Source: Escherichia coli (GTDB lineage Bacteria > Pseudomonadota > Gammaproteobacteria > Enterobacterales > Enterobacteriaceae). Taken from it: 64,000 bases of DNA. Numbering within the stretch: position 1 is the stretch's first letter; every line of letters begins with the position of its first letter. The DNA is taken from the NCBI RefSeq assembly GCF_044647545.1, contig NZ_CP172818.1; one strand, 5' to 3'. A program made the translations under genes and the position numbers. The notes beneath the pieces were generated by a model, which worked only from the letters and a program-made list of their open reading frames with translations, did not search any database and was not told the DNA's origin. Positions 3,493-49,764 of the stretch are shown in pieces.

Positions 3493-6066
3493 TTACTGGA
3501 CGGCGACAATCCGGTCTTCATTAACTTCCAGGCGAATCACTTTACCCGGAACCAATTCACCAGACAGTATTTGCTGTGCCAGCGGGTTTTCGATCTGCTG
3601 CTGAATTGCACGTTTCAGAGGACGTGCACCATAGACCGGATCGTAACCGTTCTCGCTCAGCAGTTTCAGCGCCTCGTCAGAAATGTGGATTTCATAACCA
3701 CGTTCTTCCAGACGTTTATACAGACGTTTCAACTGAATCTGCGCAATCGACGCAATGTGCTGTTCACCCAGCGGATGGAAGACCACCACTTCATCGATAC
3801 GGTTAATGAATTCCGGACGGAAGTTATGGCTTACCACACCGAGCACCAGCTCTTTCATGTGCGCATAATCCAGTTCACCGAAGCGTTCCTGAATCAAATC
3901 GGAACCGAGGTTAGAGGTCATAATGACAACCGTATTACGGAAGTCGACCGTTCTCCCCTGCCCGTCAGTCAGACGCCCATCATCCAATACCTGCAACAGA
4001 ATGTTGAAGACATCCGGATGCGCTTTTTCCACTTCATCCAGCAGGATGACGGAATACGGACGACGACGCACCGCTTCGGTCAGGTAGCCACCTTCTTCAT
4101 AACCGACATATCCCGGAGGCGCACCAACCAGACGAGACACCGAGTGTTTCTCCATAAACTCGGACATATCGATACGGACCATCGCCTCGTCGCTATCAAA
4201 CATAAAGTTCGCCAGCGCCTTACAAAGCTCAGTTTTCCCCACACCCGTTGGGCCGAGGAACAGGAATGAACCAATCGGGCGATTTGGATCCGCCAGCCCC
4301 GCACGGCTACGACGAATAGCGTTAGATACCGCATCAACCGCTTCGTTCTGACCAATAACGCGATGGTGCAGTTCTTGCTCCATACGCAGCAGTTTTTCGC
4401 GCTCGCTTTCCATCATGCGAGAAACCGGAATCCCCGTCCAACGCGCCAGCACTTCAGCAATTTCGGCATCGGTCACTTTATTACGCAACAGACGCATAGT
4501 TTTGCCTTCGAGCTGCGTTGCGGCTTCCAGTTGCTTTTCCAGTTCCGGGATTTTGCCGTATTGCAGTTCAGACATCCGCGCCAGGTCACCCACACGGCGA
4601 GCCTGTTCAATAGCGATTTTCGCCTGTTCCAGTTCCGCTTTAATGGTCTGCGTACCAGAAAGCGATGCTTTCTCTGCTTTCCACTCTTCTTCTAACTCGG
4701 AGTACTGACGTTCTTTGTCGCTCAGTTCTTCGTTGAGCATATCCAGACGTTTTTTACTGGCTTCATCAGACTCTTTCATTAACGCCTGTTGTTCCAGTTT
4801 GAGCTGGATGATACGGCGATCGAGTCGGTCGAGTTCTTCTGGTTTTGAGTCAATCTGCATACGAATGCTGGATGCTGCCTCATCGATCAGGTCGATGGCT
4901 TTATCTGGCAGCTGGCGGTCAGCAATGTAGCGATGAGACAACGTCGCCGCTGCAACAATTGCCGGGTCAGTAATTTGCACATGGTGGTGCAGCTCGTAAC
5001 GTTCTTTCAGGCCACGTAGAATCGCAATGGTATCTTCAACAGAAGGCTCGGCAACAAACACTTTCTGGAAACGACGTTCCAGCGCAGCATCTTTTTCGAT
5101 GTACTGGCGATATTCGTCAAGCGTCGTGGCACCTACGCAGTGCAATTCACCACGCGCCAGCGCCGGTTTCAGCATGTTTCCGGCGTCCATTGCGCCATCG
5201 GCTTTACCCGCGCCGACCATGGTATGTAATTCGTCGATAAACAGGATGACGTTGCCTTCCTGTTTGGCAAGATCGTTAAGTACGCCTTTTAAACGTTCTT
5301 CAAACTCACCGCGATATTTCGCCCCAGCCACCAGCGCGCCCATATCCAGCGCCAGTACGCGGCGGCCTTTCAACCCTTCGGGCACTTCGCCGTTGATAAT
5401 ACGCTGCGCCAGACCTTCAACGATGGCAGTCTTACCGACGCCTGGTTCACCAATCAGTACCGGGTTATTTTTAGTACGACGTTGCAGCACCTGAATGGTA
5501 CGGCGAATTTCTTCATCACGACCAATCACCGGATCGAGTTTACCCTGTTCGGCTCGTTCGGTAAGGTCGATGGTATATTTTTTCAAAGCCTGACGTTGGT
5601 CTTCAGCACCTTGATCGTTCACGCTTTCACCTCCACGCATTTGTTCAATCGCTTGAGTAATGTTGGCGGTGGTCGCCCCTGCTGCTTTCAGGATGTCGGC
5701 CAGCGTGCCGCGAGACTCAAGTGCCGCCAGAACGAACAGTTCTGACGAGATAAAGTTATCACCACGTTTTTGCGCCAGCTTGTCGCAAAGATTAAGAACG
5801 CGCACCAGATCCTGTGATGGCTGGACATCACCACCAGTACCTTCAACCTGCGGTAAACGATTTAATGCCTGATTGATATCTGTGCGCAACTGGCCAGCAT
5901 TTATGCCAGCGGATGTTAATAAAGGACTAACCGAACCCCCTTCCTGATTCAGCAGGGCGCTCATTAAATGAAGTGGTTCGATGAATTGGTTGTCGTGCCC
6001 GAGTGCAAGTGATTGGGCATCGGCAAGAGCAAGCTGGAATTTATTAGTAAGACGATCCAGACGCAT
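3493..6066 (-). CDS. clpB: ClpB disaggregase chaperone (AAA+ Hsp100), 857 aa
   Basis: ORF 3493-6078; translation begins [18 protein letters not shown] at the second Met; two Walker A sites ([16 protein letters not shown]). Confidence 0.97.
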
Positions 6067-27371: not shown

Positions 27372-27734
27372 GGGGCTGATTCTGGATTCGACGGGATTTG
27401 CGAAACCCAAGGTGCATGCCGAGGGGCGGTTGGCCTCGTAAAAAGCCGCAAAAAATAGTCGCAAACGACGAAAACTACGCTTTAGCAGCTTAATAACCTG
27501 CTTAGAGCCCTCTCTCCCTAGCCTCCGCTCTTAGGACGGGGATCAAGAGAGGTCAAACCCAAAAGAGATCGCGTGGAAGCCCTGCCTGGGGTTGAAGCGT
27601 TAAAACTTAATCAGGCTAGTTTGTTAGTGGCGTGTCCGTCCGCAGCTGGCAAGCGAATGTAAAGACTGACTAAGCATGTAGTACCGAGGACGTAGGAATT
27701 TCGGACGCGGGTTCAACTCCCGCCAGCTCCACCA
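27372..27734 (+). ncRNA. ssrA: tmRNA (transfer-messenger RNA)
   Basis: Begins GGGGCTGATTCTGGATTCGACGGG, contains the tag-reading frame GCAAACGACGAAAACTACGCTTTAGCAGCTTAA (ANDENYALAA-stop), ends GGTTCAACTCCCGCCAGCTCCACCA. Confidence 0.97.
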
Positions 27735-39134: not shown

Positions 39135-39488
39135 AACTCTTCTTTCTAAACGAACCAGTATAGAATTCGCCCTTTTGGCATGATATTAACTTGTCCAATA
39201 TGATCAAATAGCATTAACCCCCCCTCACAACGTCCTGCATAGGGAACACGTTTTCCCCTGTGCACCCACGACTAAATTTCCCCCCCTTTAAACTTCTCAA
39301 TAATGTCACCAATTTTCTGGAAATCCTATGATGCCTTTCCCGGTAAATGGTGCTGTGAGTTCAGAAAGATTCTGCAATCTATGTGCATTGAAAAAATCTT
39401 CAGATAGATATCATTCTCCTGAACAATCCGATGAACGGCAGAACCTCGCGGTTCTGCCGTTTTTGTTTTACTTTTCAGAGGAGTGGTG

Positions 39489-40352
39489 ATGAAAAATTTT
39501 GAAGTTCTGCAGCCACTACAGAACTCCCTTTCCGGTCTACCGCTATGGGTATCTGAACGTATATTGCAGCAGATAAATCAGTTAACCCACTACGAGCCAG
39601 TGATCGGCATCATGGGTAAAACTGGGGCGGGAAAGAGTAGCCTTTGCAATGCCCTGTTTGCCGGTGAAGTATCGCCGGTCAGCGATGTAGCGGCCTGTAC
39701 ACGTGATCCTTTACGCTTTCGCCTGCAGATTGGAGAACACTTTATGACCATCGTGGATCTGCCCGGCGTGGGCGAAAGTGGCGTTCGCGATACCGAGTAT
39801 GCTGCGCTGTACCGCGAACAACTTCCCCGGCTCGACCTGATTCTGTGGCTGATTAAGGCTGATGATCGGGCACTGGCGACTGATGAGCATTTTTACCGTC
39901 AGGTGATTGGCGAAGCATACCGGCATAAGATGCTGTTTGTTATCAGCCAGTCAGACAAAGCTGAACCCACCAGCGGTGGAAATATCCTTTCCACAGAGCA
40001 GAAACAAAATATCAGCCGCAAAATCTGCCTGCTGCATGAGCTATTCCAGCCCGTGCATCCGGTGTGTGCCGTGTCGGTTCGCCTGCAGTGGGGACTAAGG
40101 GTGATGGCAGAGCGGATGATTAAGTGTCTGCCGCGTGAGGCCAGCAGCCCGGTAGTAGCGCTACTGCAACATCCCTTTCGAACAACGGTAGCCCGGGAGC
40201 AGGCACGTGACGATTTCGGTGAAACCGTAGGTGCCATACTCGATACGGTAAGCACCTTTCCCCTTATTCCCGCCCCGGTGCGGACCATTATTCAGGCCGT
40301 GCGTTCCTCGGTGGTGTCAGTGGCCCGCGCTGTCTGGGATTTCTTCTTCTGA
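39489..40352 (+). CDS. yfjP: YfjP, prophage P-loop GTPase (YeeP/YkfA family), 287 aa
   Basis: ORF 39483-40352; ATG at 39489 five nt after GAGGAG; G1 motif GKTGAGKSS, DLPG G3 motif. Confidence 0.88.
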   Translation: MKNFEVLQPLQNSLSGLPLWVSERILQQINQLTHYEPVIGIMGKTGAGKSSLCNALFAGEVSPVSDVAACTRDPLRFRLQIGEHFMTIVDLPGVGESGVRDTEYAALYREQLPRLDLILWLIKADDRALATDEHFYRQVIGEAYRHKMLFVISQSDKAEPTSGGNILSTEQKQNISRKICLLHELFQPVHPVCAVSVRLQWGLRVMAERMIKCLPREASSPVVALLQHPFRTTVAREQARDDFGETVGAILDTVSTFPLIPAPVRTIIQAVRSSVVSVARAVWDFFF

Positions 40353-40443: not shown

Positions 40444-41263
40444 ATGACCCGTCTGGCTTCGCGCTTTGGCGCTGCAAACCAGATACGCCGTGACCGTCCG
40501 CTGACACATGAAGAACTGATACGCCATGTACCCAGTATTTTTGGGGAAGACCGGCACATCCCGCAGTGAACGGTATGCGTACATTCCCACCATTACCGTC
40601 CTGGAAAATCTGCAGCGGGAAGGCTTTCAGCCGTTCTTCGCCTGCCAGACCCGTGTGCGCGACCCGGGCCGCCGGGGATACACAAAACACATGCTGCGTC
40701 TGCGGCGGGCCGGAGAGATAAACGGAGAACATGTCCCTGAAATTATTCTGCTCAACTCTCATGACGGTACCTCCAGCTACCAGATGCTGCCGGGTTACTT
40801 CAGGTTCGTCTGCCAGAACGGGTGCGTCTGTGGCCAGTCTCTGGGGGAAGTGCGTGTTCCACACCGGGGAAATGTAGTGGAGAAAGTTATCGAAGGGGCT
40901 TACGAGGTGGTGGGCGTGTTTGACCGGATAGAGGAGAAGCGTGATGCCATGCAGTCGCTGGTCCTGCCGCCACCGGCACGCCAGGCGCTGGCACAGGCGG
41001 CACTGACTTACCGTTATGGTGACGAACATCAGCCCGTCACCACCGCCGACATTCTGACGCCGCGACGCCGGGAGGATTACGGTAAGGACCTGTGGAGCGC
41101 ATATCAGACCATCCAGGAGAATATGCTGAAAGGCGGGATTTCCGGTCGCAGTGCCAGAGGAAAACGTATCCATACCCGGGCCATTCACAGCATTGATACC
41201 GACATTAAGCTCAATCGCGCATTGTGGGTGATGGCAGAAACACTGCTCACGCAACTGCAGTAG
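40444..41263 (+). pseudogene. yfjQ: yfjQ (DUF932 family), apparently disrupted: 41-codon N-terminal frame ends at 40567, remaining 245 codons are in the +1 frame from 40526
   Basis: ATG 40444 with GAGGAG RBS encodes MTRLASRFGAANQIRRDRPLTHEELIRHVPSIFGEDRHIPQ-stop; the long ORF 40526-41263 is in a different frame; the total span (820 nt) is not a multiple of 3. Confidence 0.6.
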
Positions 41264-41479
41264 ACGTTTCATGTTGCCACGTTGTTAATATCGGACACCA
41301 CCTGTCCGCATCGCTATGTGCTCGTGTGCCTCAATCCCCCGGTTATAGCTTTTAACCCCCGTTACATCTGGCTTTTGCAGAAATAAAAAATAGTTTCTGC
41401 GTTGTCCATACCCTGTCCGCCCCCCTCTTTAAAGTAATCACATCATTTTCAGTCAGTTAACTTTCCTGGAGAATCTCTC

Positions 41480-42181
41480 ATGACACAGGCAGAACGCCGC
41501 CATGACCGGCTGGCTGTCAGGCTGTCACTGATAATCAGCCGTCTGGTTGCGGGTGAAACGTTGAGCGTGCGCAAACTGGCGGCTGAGTTTGGCGTGTCAG
41601 TGCGCACGCTGCGGCGTGATTTTCGTGAACGACTGATGTATCTGGACCTGGAGTATCAGTCCGGATACTGCCGCTTACGCACTGCTGGCAGTGAGATGCA
41701 GATGGTGCCCGACGTGCTTATCTTTGCCCACCGCAGCGGGCTGGCCGGGCTTTTTCCCGGCCTTGACCGCCGTCTGGTGAATGCACTGCTGATGTGCGAT
41801 GAGTCTCCCTGCGTGATAGCACCAGCCAATCCGGTTCCTTCGCCTTCAGGAGCATTGTCTTTCTGGAGACTGATTCAGGCCATTACCGGGCGCAGGCGGG
41901 TGACGCTGATTGCAGAGGGGCGACGCTGTGAGCGCCTAGCTCCCTGCCGGTTACTCATCCACCAGCAGACCTGGTATCTGGTGGCTGAACACGAAGGGCA
42001 TATCGCCGTATTCACACTTGATGAAATCCATCTGATTCAGCCTTTGCAGGAGACTTTTCGCCGCAATGACAGTCTGTGTCGCCTGGTTGAAGACCCGGTC
42101 TTCATTCAGGCCTTACCCCATTTTCGCTTTATCCAGCATTCACTGCTTACGTTTGTTCCGGCCGACAGCCCACCGGAATAG
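41480..42181 (+). CDS. yfjR: YfjR, putative transcriptional regulator with N-terminal HTH (DeoR-like), 233 aa
   Basis: ORF track; translation [48 protein letters not shown]... Confidence 0.85.
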
Positions 42182-42221
42182 CGCAGGCGTTGTTATCAAC
42201 CCGGCAACATGGAGGAGCCCA

Positions 42222-42458
42222 GTGCCCGTTATTGCCATTATCGCCATTGTTATCATCGTCATCATTCTGAACAAAACCGGAGTGTCCGACAGCCTCACGG
42301 CCCTGACACTTGCAACCGTTGCCGCACTACTGACGGGAGGTGGTGCAGCCGGTGCTGCCAGTGTCGCGCTGACGCCGTTCGTCGGCGTGCCGGTGGGTAT
42401 TTTTGTGGGAATTTATGTCTTTGCCAAAGTGGTTCGTCTGATTTCAGGGAAAAAATAA
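42222..42458 (+). CDS. ypjK: YpjK, small hydrophobic membrane protein (about 78 aa)
   Basis: GTG at 42222 six nt after GGAGG; translation VPVIAIIAIVIIVIILNK...; stop overlaps yfjS ATG by 1 nt. Confidence 0.65.
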   Translation: MPVIAIIAIVIIVIILNKTGVSDSLTALTLATVAALLTGGGAAGAASVALTPFVGVPVGIFVGIYVFAKVVRLISGKK

Positions 42459-42901
42459 TGAAACGTAAAACACTACCTCTGCTGGCGCTGGTTGCCACCT
42501 CTCTGTTTCTGAGCGCCTGCGATGACAGGAGTGATGACCTCAAAGCTATCAGTAAATTTAAGGACCTCACGCCCCCGCGCTTCAGCGATGTGGTCAGCCG
42601 TCAGGATGATGTCAGCGAAGAATGGTCACAGGTTGGCTTCTCATCCGGTCTCACCCTGCAGGTCTTACGTACCCGTGAGTCGCCCGATGGTTGCGAGGGT
42701 GGCAGTTACTACTATCTGGTAGATATGGAGGAGAAAACCGTCCAGCCGCTGATGAATGCGCTTTGTATTGCCGACAATATCAAACTGGAATACCACGAAG
42801 TTACGGACCCGTATACGAAAGAAAAATACTTCGAATATTCCCATGACGGCAAACTGATGGGACGGCTGCTGATACCGTCAAACCCTGATAACCGGGAATA
42901 A
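42458..42901 (+). CDS. yfjS: Lipoprotein YfjS, 147 aa
   Basis: In-frame Met within ORF 42209-42901; signal peptide MKRKTLPLLALVATSLFLSAC with lipobox. Confidence 0.8.
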   Translation: MKRKTLPLLALVATSLFLSACDDRSDDLKAISKFKDLTPPRFSDVVSRQDDVSEEWSQVGFSSGLTLQVLRTRESPDGCEGGSYYYLVDMEEKTVQPLMNALCIADNIKLEYHEVTDPYTKEKYFEYSHDGKLMGRLLIPSNPDNRE

Positions 42902-42924
42902 AAACAACGAGAAAGGAGACATAA

Positions 42925-43392
42925 ATGAAAATACGTTCACTAAGCCGGTTTGTACTGGCAAGTACAATGTTCGCCAGCTTTACAGCCTCTGCGGTCCCCG
43001 GACTCTGGCAACAGGGGTACGGTCAGGGCAATGCGGAATACAGTGTGACGGATGCCAGCGGAAAGATGTTTACCATCAACTGCACGGGAAATCCGGACCA
43101 GAACGGTATTTACCAGCACTCGGTTTTTCTGATCCTCGCCGGGGATAAAACGGTCAGCTCGCATGATGACAGTACCGGCATCACAGTGGTGATGGACCAT
43201 AAGCAATATGCCATTCCCTCAACCCTTGGCTGGCGTAACGGAGATAATGCCTGGTTCAGCTTCATCATGGATATCCGTAAGGCCCGGCAGTTCGACGTCT
43301 ACGTCAATGACCAGAAAGTTGGATCGTTTAACCCTGATGTTCGGAATGCACAAAAGGTCCTGCCAACATTAGCGGACTGCACTAACGACTGA
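42925..43392 (+). CDS. yfjT: Secreted protein YfjT, 155 aa
   Basis: ORF track; cleavable signal peptide MKIRSLSRFVLASTMFASFTASA; AGGAGA RBS. Confidence 0.8.
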   Translation: MKIRSLSRFVLASTMFASFTASAVPGLWQQGYGQGNAEYSVTDASGKMFTINCTGNPDQNGIYQHSVFLILAGDKTVSSHDDSTGITVVMDHKQYAIPSTLGWRNGDNAWFSFIMDIRKARQFDVYVNDQKVGSFNPDVRNAQKVLPTLADCTND

Positions 43393-43784
43393 CGGCTGCG
43401 CCTTCCCTACCATAACAACCCTGATTGCCTCCGGCGGTCGGGGGTTTCTTTTTTCTCCTTAATCTCCAGAGGTAGGCCACGTACTTTCGAACGATGAGCG
43501 CAGTGGTCAGTTTTTTTCAGATATATTTATCTTTTTTTGGCTGTAAGCTCCGCTGTGAGCGCAGGCTGTGTGAAAACTCCTGATCACTTCTTGGTCTAAG
43601 CGATGGTTTCATATGATCAACCATTCTTGATAAACCCATGCGACGAACTGACTTTTTCATTAAAATTAGAAATATACGAATGAATACTGCGGATACCGAC
43701 ATGGCCAATCACATTCAAGGACAAGGCAGGCACCAGGTGACATTACTCCCTGATGCACTGGATGATTTTGTCACTGAAGATAAC

Positions 43785-43931
43785 TTAAGTAAGTTTAATC
43801 AGTTCATCACGGGTCGGTGGCATATCGAGATAATTAATTATTGTCGGTTCGTTGCCGTTGTTATGAAGCATCTCCAGCGTGTTGCGTGAGGTGCCACAGG
43901 CCGGGTTGTGATAGATGGTAATGTTGCTCAT
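43785..43931 (-). pseudogene. yfjU: Arsenate reductase ArsC N-terminal fragment (48 codons)
   Basis: Minus-strand translation MSNITIYHNPACGTSRNTLEMLHNNGNEPTIINYLDMPPTRDELIKLT-stop, the ArsC N-terminus with the catalytic Cys, truncated. Confidence 0.8.
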
Positions 43932-43943
43932 ATCAGTATCTAA

Positions 43944-44935
43944 TTACAAAGTGACAGAGAGCCGCCACGCCAGCGCGGCCAGAGTGACAAACAGCACCGG
44001 CACAGTCATGACAATGCCGGTACGGAAGTAATATCCCCAAGTGATTGTCATATTTTTCTGGGCAAGCACATGCAGCCACAGCAGAGTTGCCAGACTGCCA
44101 ATCGGGGTGATTTTCGGGCCTAAATCACAGCCAATCACATTGGCATAAATCATTGCCTCTTTGACGACGCCAGTCGCCGTACTCCCGTCAATCGACAGCG
44201 CACCAATCAGCACCGTCGGCATATTGTTCATCACTGATGAGAGAAATGCCGTCAAGAAGCCGGTGCCGAACGTCGCTGCCCATAACCCCTTGTCTGCCAG
44301 CAGATTCAGCACGCCAGACAGGTACTCCGTGAACCCTGCATTGCGCAGGCCATAGACCACGATGTACATGCCCAGTGAGAAAATAACGATCTGCCATGGC
44401 GCACCGCGCAGGACTTTTCCGGTGTTGATCGAATGACCTCTTTTCGCCACCACAAACAGCACTGCTGCGCCAGCGGCCGCTATCGCACTGACCAGGATTC
44501 CCTGCGGCTCCAGAAAGAAGAAACCGACAAGCAGCAATAACAGGACAATCCAGCCCGCCCTGAAGGTTGCCAGATCCTTGATCGCACTGGCAGGCGTCTT
44601 CAGCAGCGAAACTTAATACGTTGCCGGAATAACTCTGCGAAAGAAGAGATACAGCATAATCAGCGTGGCCGCAATCGCTGCCGCATCCACGGAGATCATA
44701 ACGGAGGCGTACTGCGCAAAGCTCAGACCGAAGAAGTCCGCCGAGACGATATTCACCAGGTTAGAAACAATGAGCGGCAGGCTGGCCGTATCTGCAATAA
44801 ATCCTGCAGCCATGACAAAGGCCAGTGTCGTGCCCTGGCTGAACCCAGTGCGATCAGCATCGCAATCACAATCGGCGTCAGGATCAGCGCGGCGCCGTCA
44901 TTGGCAAACAACGCATCAACAGCGGCACCGAGCAA
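43944..44935 (-). pseudogene. yfjV: Arsenite efflux pump ArsB remnant, frameshifted and 5'-truncated
   Basis: ORF 43944-44537 encodes an ArsB-like C-terminal membrane region; ORFs 44613-44813 and 44753-44935 in other frames carry ArsB-like N-terminal segments. Confidence 0.75.
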
Positions 44936-45094
44936 GACTTTCCAGGTGAACAGCGCTCTAGGTAGGAACTTTGTCGTTGATAGAGTCTTCAGCCATCAAC
45001 ACTGTATCGAGTAATGAAATTGGTTGCTAGAAAGTCGATGATTTGTTGCGTATGATTAAAAATCAACCTTAAAGGCTTTATACATGGATTTGCT

Positions 45095-46798
45095 ATGGCT
45101 TTTGTATCAGAAAGAGAAATTGTAAGAAAGATATTTAGCAAAAAAATTGACTTTACGATCTTGGCATTTTTCTATATTTCCTCTATTTTTTTTCTTCTTT
45201 GTAGTGGCGTTCTCTTTCAATATTTTACCGCTGCCTTCACAAAAGGTAATTGTTATGAATGCTCAATGAAACTTGATTACATAAAACAATTTTATTTTTC
45301 ACTGGAAACCGCATGGTACCTCATATCTGCTGTTGCAGTATTTATTGCATCTGTTTTTATACAGCATAGAATTAAAGCTTATTTAACATTATTAGCTATT
45401 ACATGGATTGTACTAACAATAACAGATGTGGCGTTAATACACGCCTTAGACAATATAGCCATGAATAATATTTTGTTAAATATACTATATAATCTTTTTG
45501 GGGCGATTTTATTGTCACTGTTTATGTGTTTATCAAATTCCCTCCTTTTCCACCTTAATAAGATAAAACATATTCCAATGATTTTATCGGCAATGATTCC
45601 ATTAGTTTCCGCAATAATAATAGCCATACTCATAACCGCTGTTATATATTTATTGTTTGCCCGGCAGGCGGTAGAGATTGAGATGGATATATCTGAAGGT
45701 TCAGACATCGCATATGTAGGTGTAAAAGATAATGAGGAATCATTTGGGTTTTTAAATGATAAAAAAACAGACACACCAACGTATCTGGATGTAATCAAAA
45801 ATGGTAGTTTGATATATAATGATACACAGGGTTTAAGTGGTGCTGATATTTATATTGTCTCCGGTTGTTATGCCCTTCCAGATTTACTTCGCAATGTACC
45901 GCTTGATGCTAAAAAATCTTTTCTGAATGTAAAAAAGCTAGAAATCACACAGAAACTTCCAATGATGGGGTTCATACAAGGTGAATCCGCTGATGTGATG
46001 CCTAAAGCAGCATCCAGGTTAAGTTTGAGCAAGCAAGATGATAAATTTATGCTAGCCTCAAGTGTTACTGACTCTCAAATAAAATTTAAATCAAACAATG
46101 CACAATTGATGGTTGCTTTCGCATTTATGCCAATAACAACGAATGGTATTTTACATGATTATACATACGATATAATAATAAATGATAAAAAATATAAAAT
46201 TGAAAATCATGTTGCACCTCTATCTAGGCTTGATAAAAATAAGAAGATGAAGTGTGAATACCAGCAAATATCGGATTTAACAAATACGTATAACATTAAT
46301 GCAAATTACTTAACGGGTTTTTTACTTGTCCTAAAACCAGATGATATTATTAATTACAACAATAGCCCTTCCGTACTACTCAAGACTGATTTTGCGTTCT
46401 ATAAAAAAACATACCAGAAGCTTGATAAAATATATGATGACATAAGCAATGGAAAATTATCTTCACTGAGAGCAACAGGTATCTCCCAGTTTAGTATCAA
46501 CGGGAAACATTTGTCGTTAAGGCCAGAATCGGAGATTATTATTTCTGAAGGGAGTTTGTATGGACTAGTTAATAAAAGCAAAAAAATCAAAATATATGGC
46601 ACAGCAGATCTTGTTTTTGTTGATAACAAGATAATGAACCTTCGTAAAATAACTTATTTGCAATCTAAGCTAGAAATTTTTGGTTCTTCTATTATGGATA
46701 TATTAAAGTATATATTTGGTTTAGGTCTGCTAGCAATTTCTATAAAATTCATTCATTCTTACTTTAAGAATGATGTGAATGAAAATTTATTCTTGTAA
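45095..46798 (+). CDS. yfjW: YfjW, 567 aa, N-terminal polytopic membrane domain plus large C-terminal domain of unknown function; strongly AT-rich
   Basis: ORF track; about five hydrophobic helices in the first ~190 residues; A/T-rich codon usage unlike the core genome. Confidence 0.85.
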   Translation: MAFVSEREIVRKIFSKKIDFTILAFFYISSIFFLLCSGVLFQYFTAAFTKGNCYECSMKLDYIKQFYFSLETAWYLISAVAVFIASVFIQHRIKAYLTLLAITWIVLTITDVALIHALDNIAMNNILLNILYNLFGAILLSLFMCLSNSLLFHLNKIKHIPMILSAMIPLVSAIIIAILITAVIYLLFARQAVEIEMDISEGSDIAYVGVKDNEESFGFLNDKKTDTPTYLDVIKNGSLIYNDTQGLSGADIYIVSGCYALPDLLRNVPLDAKKSFLNVKKLEITQKLPMMGFIQGESADVMPKAASRLSLSKQDDKFMLASSVTDSQIKFKSNNAQLMVAFAFMPITTNGILHDYTYDIIINDKKYKIENHVAPLSRLDKNKKMKCEYQQISDLTNTYNINANYLTGFLLVLKPDDIINYNNSPSVLLKTDFAFYKKTYQKLDKIYDDISNGKLSSLRATGISQFSINGKHLSLRPESEIIISEGSLYGLVNKSKKIKIYGTADLVFVDNKIMNLRKITYLQSKLEIFGSSIMDILKYIFGLGLLAISIKFIHSYFKNDVNENLFL

Positions 46799-46805
46799 CG
46801 CATTT

Positions 46806-46826
46806 GGCTCCAATTGGAGCCTTTTT
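46806..46826 (+). terminator. Rho-independent terminator after yfjW
   Basis: GGCTCCAATTGGAGCC hairpin followed by TTTTT. Confidence 0.8.
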
Positions 46827-47227
46827 ATGACTATTTATTAAAATATCCTAAGTTAAGCCTGTTTTTAAAGCAGGCTTGAGCGTGAAGCGGACACTCATAC
46901 CTGCTTTAAAGTGGCGTTTTTGTCGTTACCCATACCTATATTTTCTGTTGTTTAACTGCCAGAACTGAGCGGTTGAAAAGCCAGAAATATGCCGAGCCAG
47001 CGGCATGGAAGCGCCAGCAGCTGTTGAATGGAGTACTGTAGGCAAATGGTGCCGTAACCGGCTTTCGTACTGAAAGGTTCTGTCTATCCCATCCCTTCTC
47101 TTGTATCTAACATTTAGTTGTGAATAGCTACTGTAAATGCCCCTACAAAATGAACCATTATTTTTAGAGGGCGTCTGGCACTCCAACTTCCGCTTTTGGC
47201 ACAGAACGGCCTATCAGCAATATAAAA

Positions 47228-47345
47228 GCATTCAGATATATATCATTTCTACAAACATACCCGATTAACGGCAGAATCTCAGGATTCTGCCGCTTTTTTA
47301 TTATTTTTCAGGGGAGTAGTAATGAGCAACTCTGAAGGTTGGTAG
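47228..47345 (+). other. Remnant of a second yfjP-like GTPase gene: conserved 5' leader with hairpin plus a truncated 7-codon ORF
   Basis: 47228-47321 is about 80 percent identical to the yfjP leader 39405-39488, including the CGGCAGAA...TTCTGCCG hairpin and the RBS; ATG 47322 encodes MSNSEGW-stop. Confidence 0.7.
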
Positions 47346-47695
47346 TCATTTTAGCAAACGCTTTCTGGTCTGCCGCAGTGGGCATCGGCTGATTGCGTAG
47401 CAGGGCCACTGGTATCTGCCGGTATCACCGACATTAACATTGAAGACGACCAGGGCATTCACGTCCGCCTGATAGTTCGTGATGCCGAAGGTCGGATGGT
47501 TGGCGGGCATGGAACTTTGAACCGGACGCCGGTGAAGGTTTTAACCGCTATATCCACAGGTCAGGCATCCGCACCGACACCTTCCCCCGCTGACTCCGAA
47601 TCATTTACCAGCAACATTTCACCTTCCCAAACGCGCTTTATTACCTCATACGCCAGCCATCGCCGCTGGCGTTTTTTATTCACGGAGACATACCC

Positions 47696-48154
47696 ATGAC
47701 AACACAGACACAGTACGACCTCGTACCCGCTAACGGATCCGAATTTGAGTTGAGCGTAACGCAGGTACCCGATGAACAGCATATCCGCTTCTGGCCGCAG
47801 CACTTTGGCACCATCCCGCAGTGGATAACGCTGGAACCGCGCATTTTCGCCTGGATGGACCGCTTCTGTGATGAGTACTGCGGGGGTATCTGGTCCTTTT
47901 ACACGCTCAGCAATGGCGGAGCGTTTATGGCTCCTGATGCTGACGGTGACGATAAATGGCATTTGCTCAACGGCATGAATGGCAATGGTGCGGAAATGAG
48001 CGCGGAAGCCGCAGGTATCGCTGTCTGCCTGATTGAATATAGCCATCACGCCTGCCTCACCGAATGCGATGCCATGACGGAGCACTATTACCGCCTGCGG
48101 GATTACGCTCTGCAGCACCCTGAATCCAGCGCCATTATGCGCATTATTGATTAA
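47696..48154 (+). CDS. yfjX: YfjX, antirestriction protein (ArdB/KlcA family), 152 aa
   Basis: ORF track; translation MTTQTQYDLVPANGSEFELSVTQVPDEQHIRFWPQHFGTIPQWITLEPRIFAWMDRFCDEY... Confidence 0.88.
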   Translation: MTTQTQYDLVPANGSEFELSVTQVPDEQHIRFWPQHFGTIPQWITLEPRIFAWMDRFCDEYCGGIWSFYTLSNGGAFMAPDADGDDKWHLLNGMNGNGAEMSAEAAGIAVCLIEYSHHACLTECDAMTEHYYRLRDYALQHPESSAIMRIID

Positions 48155-48162
48155 GGATACTC

Positions 48163-48645
48163 ATGATGGAACAGTCACTCATCCCACAGACACCGGTACT
48201 TCCACTGACCGCACAACGCACGGTAAAACGCGCCTTAACGCTGCTTGACCGACACCTGCGCGAAACAGGCGTGGCATTCACCTCCACTCAGGCTGCTCGT
48301 GACTGGCTGAAGCTGAAAATGGCGGGGCTGGAGCGTGAAGAATTTATGATGCTGTATCTGAACCAGCAGAACCAGTTGATTGCCCACGAAACCCTGTTTG
48401 CCGGTTCTATTAGCAGTACCGAGGTACATCCCCGTGAGGTGGTCAAACGCGCCCTGTATTTCAATGCAGCAGCAGTGATACTGGCGCATAACCACCCCTC
48501 CGGCGACACTACTCCCAGCCAGGCAGATAAGACTATAACGCAGCGTCTGGTGCAGGCGCTTCAGCTCGTTGATATCCGTGTCCCTGACCATCTGATTGTT
48601 GGTGGCAGGCAAATCTATTCGTTCGCAGAACACGGTCTGCTTTGA
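48163..48645 (+). CDS. yfjY: YfjY, RadC-like JAB/MPN domain protein, 160 aa
   Basis: ORF track; JAMM-like motif HNHPSGDTTPSQAD. Confidence 0.88.
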   Translation: MMEQSLIPQTPVLPLTAQRTVKRALTLLDRHLRETGVAFTSTQAARDWLKLKMAGLEREEFMMLYLNQQNQLIAHETLFAGSISSTEVHPREVVKRALYFNAAAVILAHNHPSGDTTPSQADKTITQRLVQALQLVDIRVPDHLIVGGRQIYSFAEHGLL

Positions 48646-48653
48646 GGTATTAC

Positions 48654-48854
48654 ATGAGAATTATCAGTAAACGCCGGGCAATGACGATATACCGCCAGCA
48701 TCCTGAGTCCCGAATCTTTCGCTACTGCACCGGAAAATATCAGTGGCACGGTAGCGTCTGTCATTACACCGGCAGGGATGTTCCGGATATCACAGGAGTC
48801 CTGGCTGTGTACGCCGAACGCCGCAGGACCGCAGCGGACCGTATGCTTGACTGA
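48654..48854 (+). CDS. ypjJ: YpjJ, DUF987 protein (YeeT paralog), 66 aa
   Basis: ORF 48642-48854; ATG at 48654; translation MRIISKRRAMTIYRQHPESRIFRYCTGKYQWHG... Confidence 0.75.
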   Translation: MRIISKRRAMTIYRQHPESRIFRYCTGKYQWHGSVCHYTGRDVPDITGVLAVYAERRRTAADRMLD

Positions 48855-48891
48855 TGAGTATCACCCTGAACTGACAATAAAGAGGTTATGA

Positions 48892-49209
48892 ATGAGCAAC
48901 ACCACATGGGGCCTGCAGCGAGATATCACGCCGCGCCTGGGAGCACGTCTGGTGCAGGAGGGCAACCAGCTGCACTATCTGGCTGACCGGGCCAGTATCA
49001 CCGGTAAGTTTAGTGACGCCGAATGTCCTAAGCTGGATGTGGTATTTCCACATTTTATCAGCCAGATAGAGTCGATGCTGACCACTGGTGAACTGAATCC
49101 CCGCCATGCCCAATGCGTCACCCTGTACCACAACGGTTTTACCTGCGAAGCCGATACTCTTGGTAGTTGCGGCTACGTATACATCGCTGTTTACCCCACT
49201 CAACGCTAA
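48892..49209 (+). CDS. yfjZ: YfjZ, CbeA-family type IV antitoxin, 105 aa
   Basis: ORF track; translation [58 protein letters not shown]... Confidence 0.88.
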
Positions 49210-49229
49210 CTAATTTCACGAGAGCAAGC

Positions 49230-49559
49230 ATGAACACTCTACCTGCTACAATTTCGCAGGCGGCGAAGCCCTGCCTGTCGCCAGTGGCTGTCTGGCAAAT
49301 GCTACTGACACGCCTGCTGGAACAACACTATGGCCTGACACTGAACGACACGCCGTTCAGTGATGAAACTGTTATTAAGGAACATATCGATGCTGGTATC
49401 ACTCTGGCCGATGCAGTCAATTTTCTGGTGGAAAAGTACGAACTGGTACGTATCGATCACAGAGGATTTTCGTGGCAACAACAGTCTCCATATATTTCCG
49501 TAGTAGATATTCTGCGAGCAAGGCGCTCTACCGGCTTGCTAAAAACTAATGTGAAATAA
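49230..49559 (+). CDS. ypjF: YpjF, CbtA-family type IV toxin (cytoskeleton-targeting), 109 aa
   Basis: In-frame ATG 49230 within ORF 49167-49559; translation [57 protein letters not shown]... Confidence 0.85.
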
Positions 49560-49740
49560 ACGCTTAAATACAGAGCAGACTGAAGGAAAGCAAAATGCTA
49601 ATCTCATAGACGAAGAGACTCCCGCTGTAACCTCCCCTCCCCCGAAAAAACCTGACATTTTCTTTTAGGACCAACAATGGGACCAAAATGAAAATTGAAC
49701 TGAAGATTACAATCAATTTAACAACAAGTTACACAACCAA

Positions 49741-49764
49741 TTCAACTCCCGCCAGCTCCACCAA
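49741..49764. repeat. attR: 24-bp direct repeat identical to the ssrA 3' end
   Basis: TTCAACTCCCGCCAGCTCCACCAA, exact match to 27712-27735. Confidence 0.9.

Follow-up and report, generated by a model that had tools for sequence, protein, structure and literature searches.

In Escherichia coli K-12, the segment of CP4-57 from yfjT to yfjW contains the genes yfjU, ypjL, yfjV and ypjM, in this order (PMC10652928), and yfjV' has been chosen as a pseudogene landing site (PMC3467084). The PGAP annotation of K-12 describes arsC' (yfjU') as the pseudogene of a glutaredoxin domain-containing protein, incomplete and with its C-terminus missing, and arsB' (yfjV', formerly also ypjL/ypjM) as an arsenic transporter pseudogene, frameshifted, with an internal stop and no N-terminus. 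The same locus is present in the window, that is, the whole stretch of 64,000 nucleotides of E. coli DNA analyzed here. Between 43790 and 44954 the DNA is 100% identical to the K-12 CP4-57 pseudogenes yfjU'/yfjV', and the breakpoints, the internal TAA, the frameshift and the neighbors yfjT and yfjW are all common to both. Because these pseudogenes are annotated in K-12 and yfjV' has been used as a landing site, the locus was already known; the initial annotation of the window correctly recognized ars remnants in it, but overlooked their identity with the K-12 pseudogenes.

The island as a whole is of the CP4-57 type and linked to ssrA. The tmRNA gene was found at 27372-27734, and the DNA downstream of it is collinear with the CP4-57 island of K-12 (97.8% overall), including the block DUF905-antirestriction-RadC/JAB-DUF987-yfjZ-ypjF. 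Over 27692-49744 the island equals that of K-12 except in two patches, at 40479-41222 and 43572-43789, whereas the core-genome flanks of the window are 1-2% diverged from K-12.

Extent and lesions of the ars remnant

The ars-derived segment (43783/43790-44954, minus strand) has its origin in an arsRBC-type operon, of which it retains the first ~47-50 of 141 arsC codons, a 12-nt spacer and, of the 1,290 nt of arsB, the final 1,012. The mechanical ORF list gives four reading frames, all on the minus strand: 43785-43931 (48 aa), 43944-44537, 44613-44813 and 44753-44935. The second and third share one frame, and the fourth lies in a different one. The intact ArsC, ArsB, ArsR and ArsH proteins of a Leclercia plasmid were used as tblastn queries against the 64-kb window. 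ArsR and ArsH gave no match anywhere in it, in agreement with the absence of arsR stated in the initial annotation. For ArsC and ArsB, the tblastn, Pfam, NCBIfam and PDB matches are far beyond chance, and the one outcome named at the outset as fatal to an ars assignment, ORFs unrelated to ArsB/ArsC, did not occur. The alignment to intact operons proposed at the same time was run against plasmid p16005813A and mapped both breakpoints.

The arsC remnant (K-12 yfjU'; 43785..43931, minus strand) is a 48-codon ORF in which ArsC residues 1-47 are kept and the C-terminal ~91 codons are gone; in the alignment with p16005813A, this corresponds to a 3' loss of 274 nt and a retained 5' end of ~150 nt. 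The tblastn search with the intact protein recovered residues 1-47 at 89% identity (E=1.2e-24), and the 48-aa ORF covers positions 1-47 of the 141 positions of NCBIfam NF007456, glutaredoxin-dependent arsenate reductase (E=4.4e-25). Its score of 88.6 bits is well under the cut-off of 242 for full-length members (NF007456 / TIGR00014, ~141 aa), and arsC' is, as judged from its sequence, a descendant of a member of this family and not a functional member. An exact look-up of the 48-aa fragment returned no record.

The catalytic Cys12 of ArsC sits in the N-terminal loop HNPxCxTSR, a role established for R773 ArsC, in which Arg60, Arg94 and Arg107 form the anion-binding triad. The remnant aligns to residues 1-47 of the R773-type arsenate reductase structures PDB 1I9D/1JZW (140/141 residues). 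It reads MSNITIYHNPACGTSRNT, with the cysteine at position 12 within HNPACGTSR, so that the Cys12 loop is preserved. The homology ends at about residue 47-50, and the region of the Arg60/Arg94/Arg107 triad is deleted. The TAA that closes arsC' after 48 codons (43785-43787) is specific to the window: K-12 has G at 43786, and its yfjU frame reads on to 104 aa. The truncation of ArsC after 48 codons reported initially therefore holds for this DNA, as an N-terminal fragment and a 48-codon ORF, but not for the K-12 copy.

Gene order and the arsB-arsC intergenic spacer (43932..43943, minus strand) are as in clusters of the p16005813A type; the spacer measures 12 nt, a length equal to that in intact operons (in p16005813A piece L002, arsB ends at 4155 and arsC starts at 4142). 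The arsB remnant proper extends over 43944..44954 on the minus strand and represents the last 1,012 of the 1,290 nt of the gene, with 1,011 arsB bases present in the window owing to a 1-bp deletion. Three lesions were identified. The first is a 5' truncation at 44954, with the loss of 278 nt and of codons 1-93 (the break lies in codon 93). The second is a -1 frameshift at 44844-44846, where a C run is shortened by the 1-bp deletion from CCCC to CCC (C4 to C3). The third is an in-frame TAA at 44613-44615, in a position where intact genes read GAC and which differs from it by two substitutions. The frameshift and the missing N-terminus had been described correctly in the initial annotation, and the in-frame TAA had been overlooked. 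The end of the ars DNA also had to be moved from 44935, a position that just marks the earliest TTG in a mechanically called ORF, to 44954.

The identity of the fragment as arsB is supported on both sides of the frameshift. Residues 130-429 of the intact Leclercia plasmid protein were recovered by tblastn at 94% identity (E=6.7e-167), and residues 92-134 in the shifted frame (E=1.5e-13). Along the 423 positions of Pfam ArsB (PF02040), three pieces matched: 231-419 (E=9.2e-69), 139-204 (E=3e-19) and 98-129 (E=2e-08). Homology to the family was thus found (PF02040, TIGR00935, NF011980), while the single uninterrupted ORF of ~429 aa is lacking and the best piece scored 314.5 bits against a curated cut-off of 415. 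One arsB' fragment aligns to residues 233-427 of the 449 residues of an arsenical pump protein (PDB 10tp).

What is left does not amount to an ars operon, since arsR and the operator-promoter region upstream of arsB are absent and the homology stops inside arsB at 44954. The remnant cannot work, because arsC is without the Arg60/Arg94/Arg107 region, arsB is truncated and interrupted twice, and arsR is deleted together with the promoter region. With high confidence we regard the region, on the strength of its sequence, as an inert remnant of a horizontally acquired arsRBC-type cluster in the variable slot of CP4-57.

The pattern of substitutions fits relaxed constraint. In an unrooted three-taxon split, in which the remnant branch includes the time when the genes were still functional, we assigned 20 nonsynonymous changes and 17 synonymous ones to this branch, versus 10 and 32 for the two intact lineages (Fisher p=0.01). 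It could still be argued that the fragments function in a reduced form, as a 197-aa C-terminal half of ArsB or as a thioredoxin-fold peptide from the N-terminus of ArsC: the 197-aa reading frame at 43944-44537 is still open, and in a strain otherwise 1-2% diverged from K-12 the remnant has kept 100% identity. However, this identity spans the island (27692-49744) and thus reflects recent shared ancestry, not selection. The 197-aa ORF moreover starts at a TTG within a transmembrane protein, with arsR and the operon promoter region gone, the arsC' frame differs between K-12 (104 aa) and the window (48 aa), and the nonsynonymous-to-synonymous ratio is raised. We consider such residual function very improbable, and retain the inert remnant as the reading of this region.

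Origin of the ars-derived DNA

The closest intact relatives of the segment are clusters of arsH and arsR-arsB-arsC on plasmids of Leclercia and Enterobacter, with up to 95.0% nucleotide identity; 199 plasmids carry an ars relative at 90-95% identity. E. coli B379 has an intact cluster of the arsH/arsRBC type in its chromosome, with 94% identity. The cluster of the Leclercia plasmid p16005813A (NZ_MK036891.1) is intact, with an arsC of 426 nt, an arsB of 1,290 nt, a regulator gene of 321 nt and a divergent arsH of 699 nt. Window positions 43780-44954 align with it (L002 3991-5166) at 94.8% nucleotide identity over 1,176 columns, with 60 mismatches and one gap. Compared with clusters of this type, 274 nt are missing from arsC and 278 nt from arsB in the window, and arsR and arsH are missing entirely.

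Resident chromosomal arsB/arsC genes of E. coli belong to the same gene families and have the same order, but they occupy a separate locus outside the island. An arsBC relative was found in 5,423 of 5,426 complete E. coli genomes at 77-78% nucleotide identity, and in K-12 genomes it is met in two places. This near-universal presence speaks for deriving the remnant from a duplication of the resident arsRBC operon, followed by decay. We rejected this origin, and hold it to be practically excluded, as the resident genes are only 77-78% identical to the remnant versus 95% for the Enterobacter/Leclercia plasmid clusters. For the same reason, the remnant is a second, horizontally acquired ars locus. 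It comes from a cluster of the Enterobacter/Leclercia-plasmid type, with arsH/arsRBC as its probable composition.

Operons of the R773 type (arsRDABC) differ in also having arsD and arsA, neither of which is traceable in the window. Such an operon was seen in H99, whose cluster was considered as a resident operon and rejected in this role, being arsRDABC.

On p16005813A, beside the intact ars cluster, L002 1751-2826 contains a DUF932-like stretch (70% identical to window 40559-40786) and a DUF5983 gene. This arrangement hints that ars clusters and modules of the island backbone also associate on plasmids.

The variable cargo slot and its junctions

The remnant lies in a stretch of the island (43562..47183) between yfjT and a DUF905 remnant, which holds an IS fragment, arsC', arsB' and yfjW. 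The yfjP-yfjT backbone is common to two other ssrA islands that occupy the corresponding chromosomal site in strains I4 (up to 43561) and PCP06171 (up to 43514), and the block DUF905-antirestriction-JAB-DUF987-yfjZ-ypjF-ypjA resumes at 47184 in I4 and at 47185 in PCP06171. In between, I4 contains ~7.5 kb including three HNH-endonuclease genes, and PCP06171 two hypothetical genes. As these sister islands carry unrelated genes there, 43562-47183 is a variable cargo slot, and the suggestion made initially that the yfjW side is a cargo site is supported by the shared backbone and the differing content. A search for terminal repeats flanking yfjW or the slot gave nothing beyond short, chance-level matches. 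A direct repeat of ~155 bp (74.5% identity) has one copy at 39399-39553, closely upstream of yfjP, and the other at 47231-47386, at the very start of the right-hand backbone and upstream of the DUF905 remnant. Islands of this family may share it as a regulatory element or as a module boundary.

At the left end of the slot, the junction at 43561/43562 reads GAGCGC, followed across the boundary by AGGCTGTG. Positions 43562..43784 (plus strand) are the left end of an IS1182-family member, 223 bp in length, consisting of the inverted repeat AGGCTGTGTGAAAACTC, the leader and 28 transposase codons, with the transposase ATG at 43701. An intact element in E. coli ECONIH1 begins with the same 223 bp (L004 3001-3223; 100% identity) and encodes a transposase of 480 aa with PF05598, PF13751 and PF01609; the intact element matching the fragment is present in 82 complete E. 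coli genomes. A full IS1182-family element has two inverted repeats and a DDE transposase (DUF772 and DDE_Tnp_1), and here one repeat and 28 codons were found; on this sequence basis, 43562-43784 is considered a fragment of a family member and not an element. Homology to island I4, the only sister island whose similarity extends this far, ends at 43561, which coincides with the IS terminus. The backbone immediately to the left (43549-43561, CCGCTGTGAGCGC) resembles the reverse complement of the flank of the ECONIH1 element at its right end (L004 4757-4769) in 12 of 13 bases. This resemblance suggests that the target preference of the IS could be sequence-specific or palindromic.

It is this IS fragment that forms the arsC-side junction, a feature missed by the initial annotation, which was right about the arsC truncation itself. 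The arsC breakpoint lies within 43780-43784, and the microhomology there is 3 bp long (ATA). The K-12 version of the join has GAAGATA followed by TCTGAAATAAG, to which the IS contributes GAAGATAAC and ars contributes CCCATATCTG, with ATA common to both. A microhomology join inside the IS points to a deletion by illegitimate recombination and not to an end made by transposase. In an exact-pattern scan with a pattern degenerate for both variants of the IS/arsC junction, no match was obtained in species-representative genomes. The variant of the window is absent from complete E. coli genomes, where the best match reached 99.1%.

On the arsB side, ars homology stops after the bases GTGAACAGC at 44954. 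The remnants had been said to abut yfjW, and they are indeed adjacent to it, 140 bp (44955..45094, 37% GC) separating the start codon of yfjW from the break in arsB. This stretch is the right-hand deletion/recombination junction. Similarity and repeat searches detected no repeats in it and no matches elsewhere, and the sequence to the right of the arsB break had no exact-pattern match in species-representative genomes. A scan of 43000-47600 against Rfam gave no match near any gathering score.

The gene yfjW (45095..46798, plus strand) is an intact ORF of 567 aa with 31% GC, and belongs to the same lineage-specific cargo segment as the ars remnant. It has no Pfam or NCBIfam match. It was found in 362 of 5,426 complete E. 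coli genomes, and among the matches listed all also overlap the ars remnant; all contexts recovered for the exact YfjW protein are of the K-12 type, none with intact ars. The only other relative found is on the Enterobacter kobei plasmid pSG.H2a_1 (87%, residues 71-567, unannotated), where it adjoins a tyrosine recombinase gene. No ars genes lie near this relative, which gives no sign of a joint transfer of ars and yfjW. A very high H-NS occupancy has been reported for yfjW, as the strongest H-NS-bound chromosomal site, which fits xenogeneic AT-rich DNA. The yfjW stop codon is overlapped by a stem-loop (46782-46826) that resembles the histone 3' stem-loop family of Rfam weakly and below threshold; probably this is no more than a simple hairpin, possibly the yfjW terminator.

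Differences from K-12 and history of the locus

The island departs from K-12 in two patches. At 40479-41222 (yfjQ, DUF932) we counted 218 differences from K-12 in an otherwise identical island, and this patch is 99.5% identical to DUF932 paralogs that many E. coli genomes carry in other islands (median of 3 copies per genome). The second patch consists of 16 substitutions clustered at 43572-43789, in the IS fragment and the junction, within an otherwise 100% identical block of ~8.5 kb (41223-49744). The version of the IS fragment in the window is that of the common intact IS, whereas for that of K-12 no intact copy in E. coli genomes or plasmids came closer than 93.8% identity. These comparisons suggest that dispersed paralogs converted both patches, the apparent donor for 43572-43789 being an intact IS located elsewhere in the source genome.

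The end of this second patch has an unusual structure. Three substitutions at 43783, 43786 and 43789, spaced 3 nt apart, replace the K-12 bases T, G and A (the ars consensus) by A, T and G. The A at 43783 is the IS base, and those at 43786 and 43789 agree with neither source, IS or ars consensus. Together these changes create the TAA that ends arsC' at 48 codons, as well as a perfect 8-bp palindrome, ACTTAAGT. We propose, tentatively and as the less probable option, that the IS1182-family stub might still be an active substrate for recombination and that the three substitutions might mark the end of an error-prone or template-switch conversion tract.

For the locus as a whole, a history in several steps can be envisaged. 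An IS1182-family element would have inserted at the arsC side, its left terminus lying where the homology to I4 ends. Illegitimate recombination would then have deleted the 3' end of arsC together with the greater part of the IS. Through another break, inside arsB, the 5' end of this gene, arsR and whatever followed would have been lost, and the rest joined to the AT-rich DNA upstream of yfjW; the point lesions would have accumulated afterwards under relaxed selection. Among the relatives recovered, none carries in this slot an ars cluster that is intact or less decayed, and it is for this reason that we infer, rather than observe, insertion in situ followed by deletion.

The ars operon may, on the other hand, never have been intact in the island, the block IS'-arsC'-arsB'-yfjW having been imported already truncated, with a plasmid or a different island as a conceivable source. 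Every recovered YfjW context indeed shows the same arrangement of the K-12 type, and the homology to I4 stops at the IS terminus. The IS fragment of K-12 (93.8% identity at best with an intact IS) and the ars DNA (~5% from its closest relatives) would also fit an old foreign block that traveled together. But this block was not found outside the K-12-type island, the yfjW relative of pSG.H2a_1 (87%) has no ars nearby, and the same data are equally compatible with decay in situ. We regard the import of a truncated block as a possible but less likely alternative, and decay in situ of an acquired cluster remains the history that we propose.

The biological weight of the locus is small, as it corresponds to annotated K-12 pseudogenes that already serve as neutral integration sites. 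The present analysis fixes the exact breakpoints and lesions, the foreign type of the ars cluster, the IS1182-family stub at the arsC junction and the variable slot. If the stub is indeed recombinationally active, dead IS stubs would go on remodeling the cargo slot of the island.
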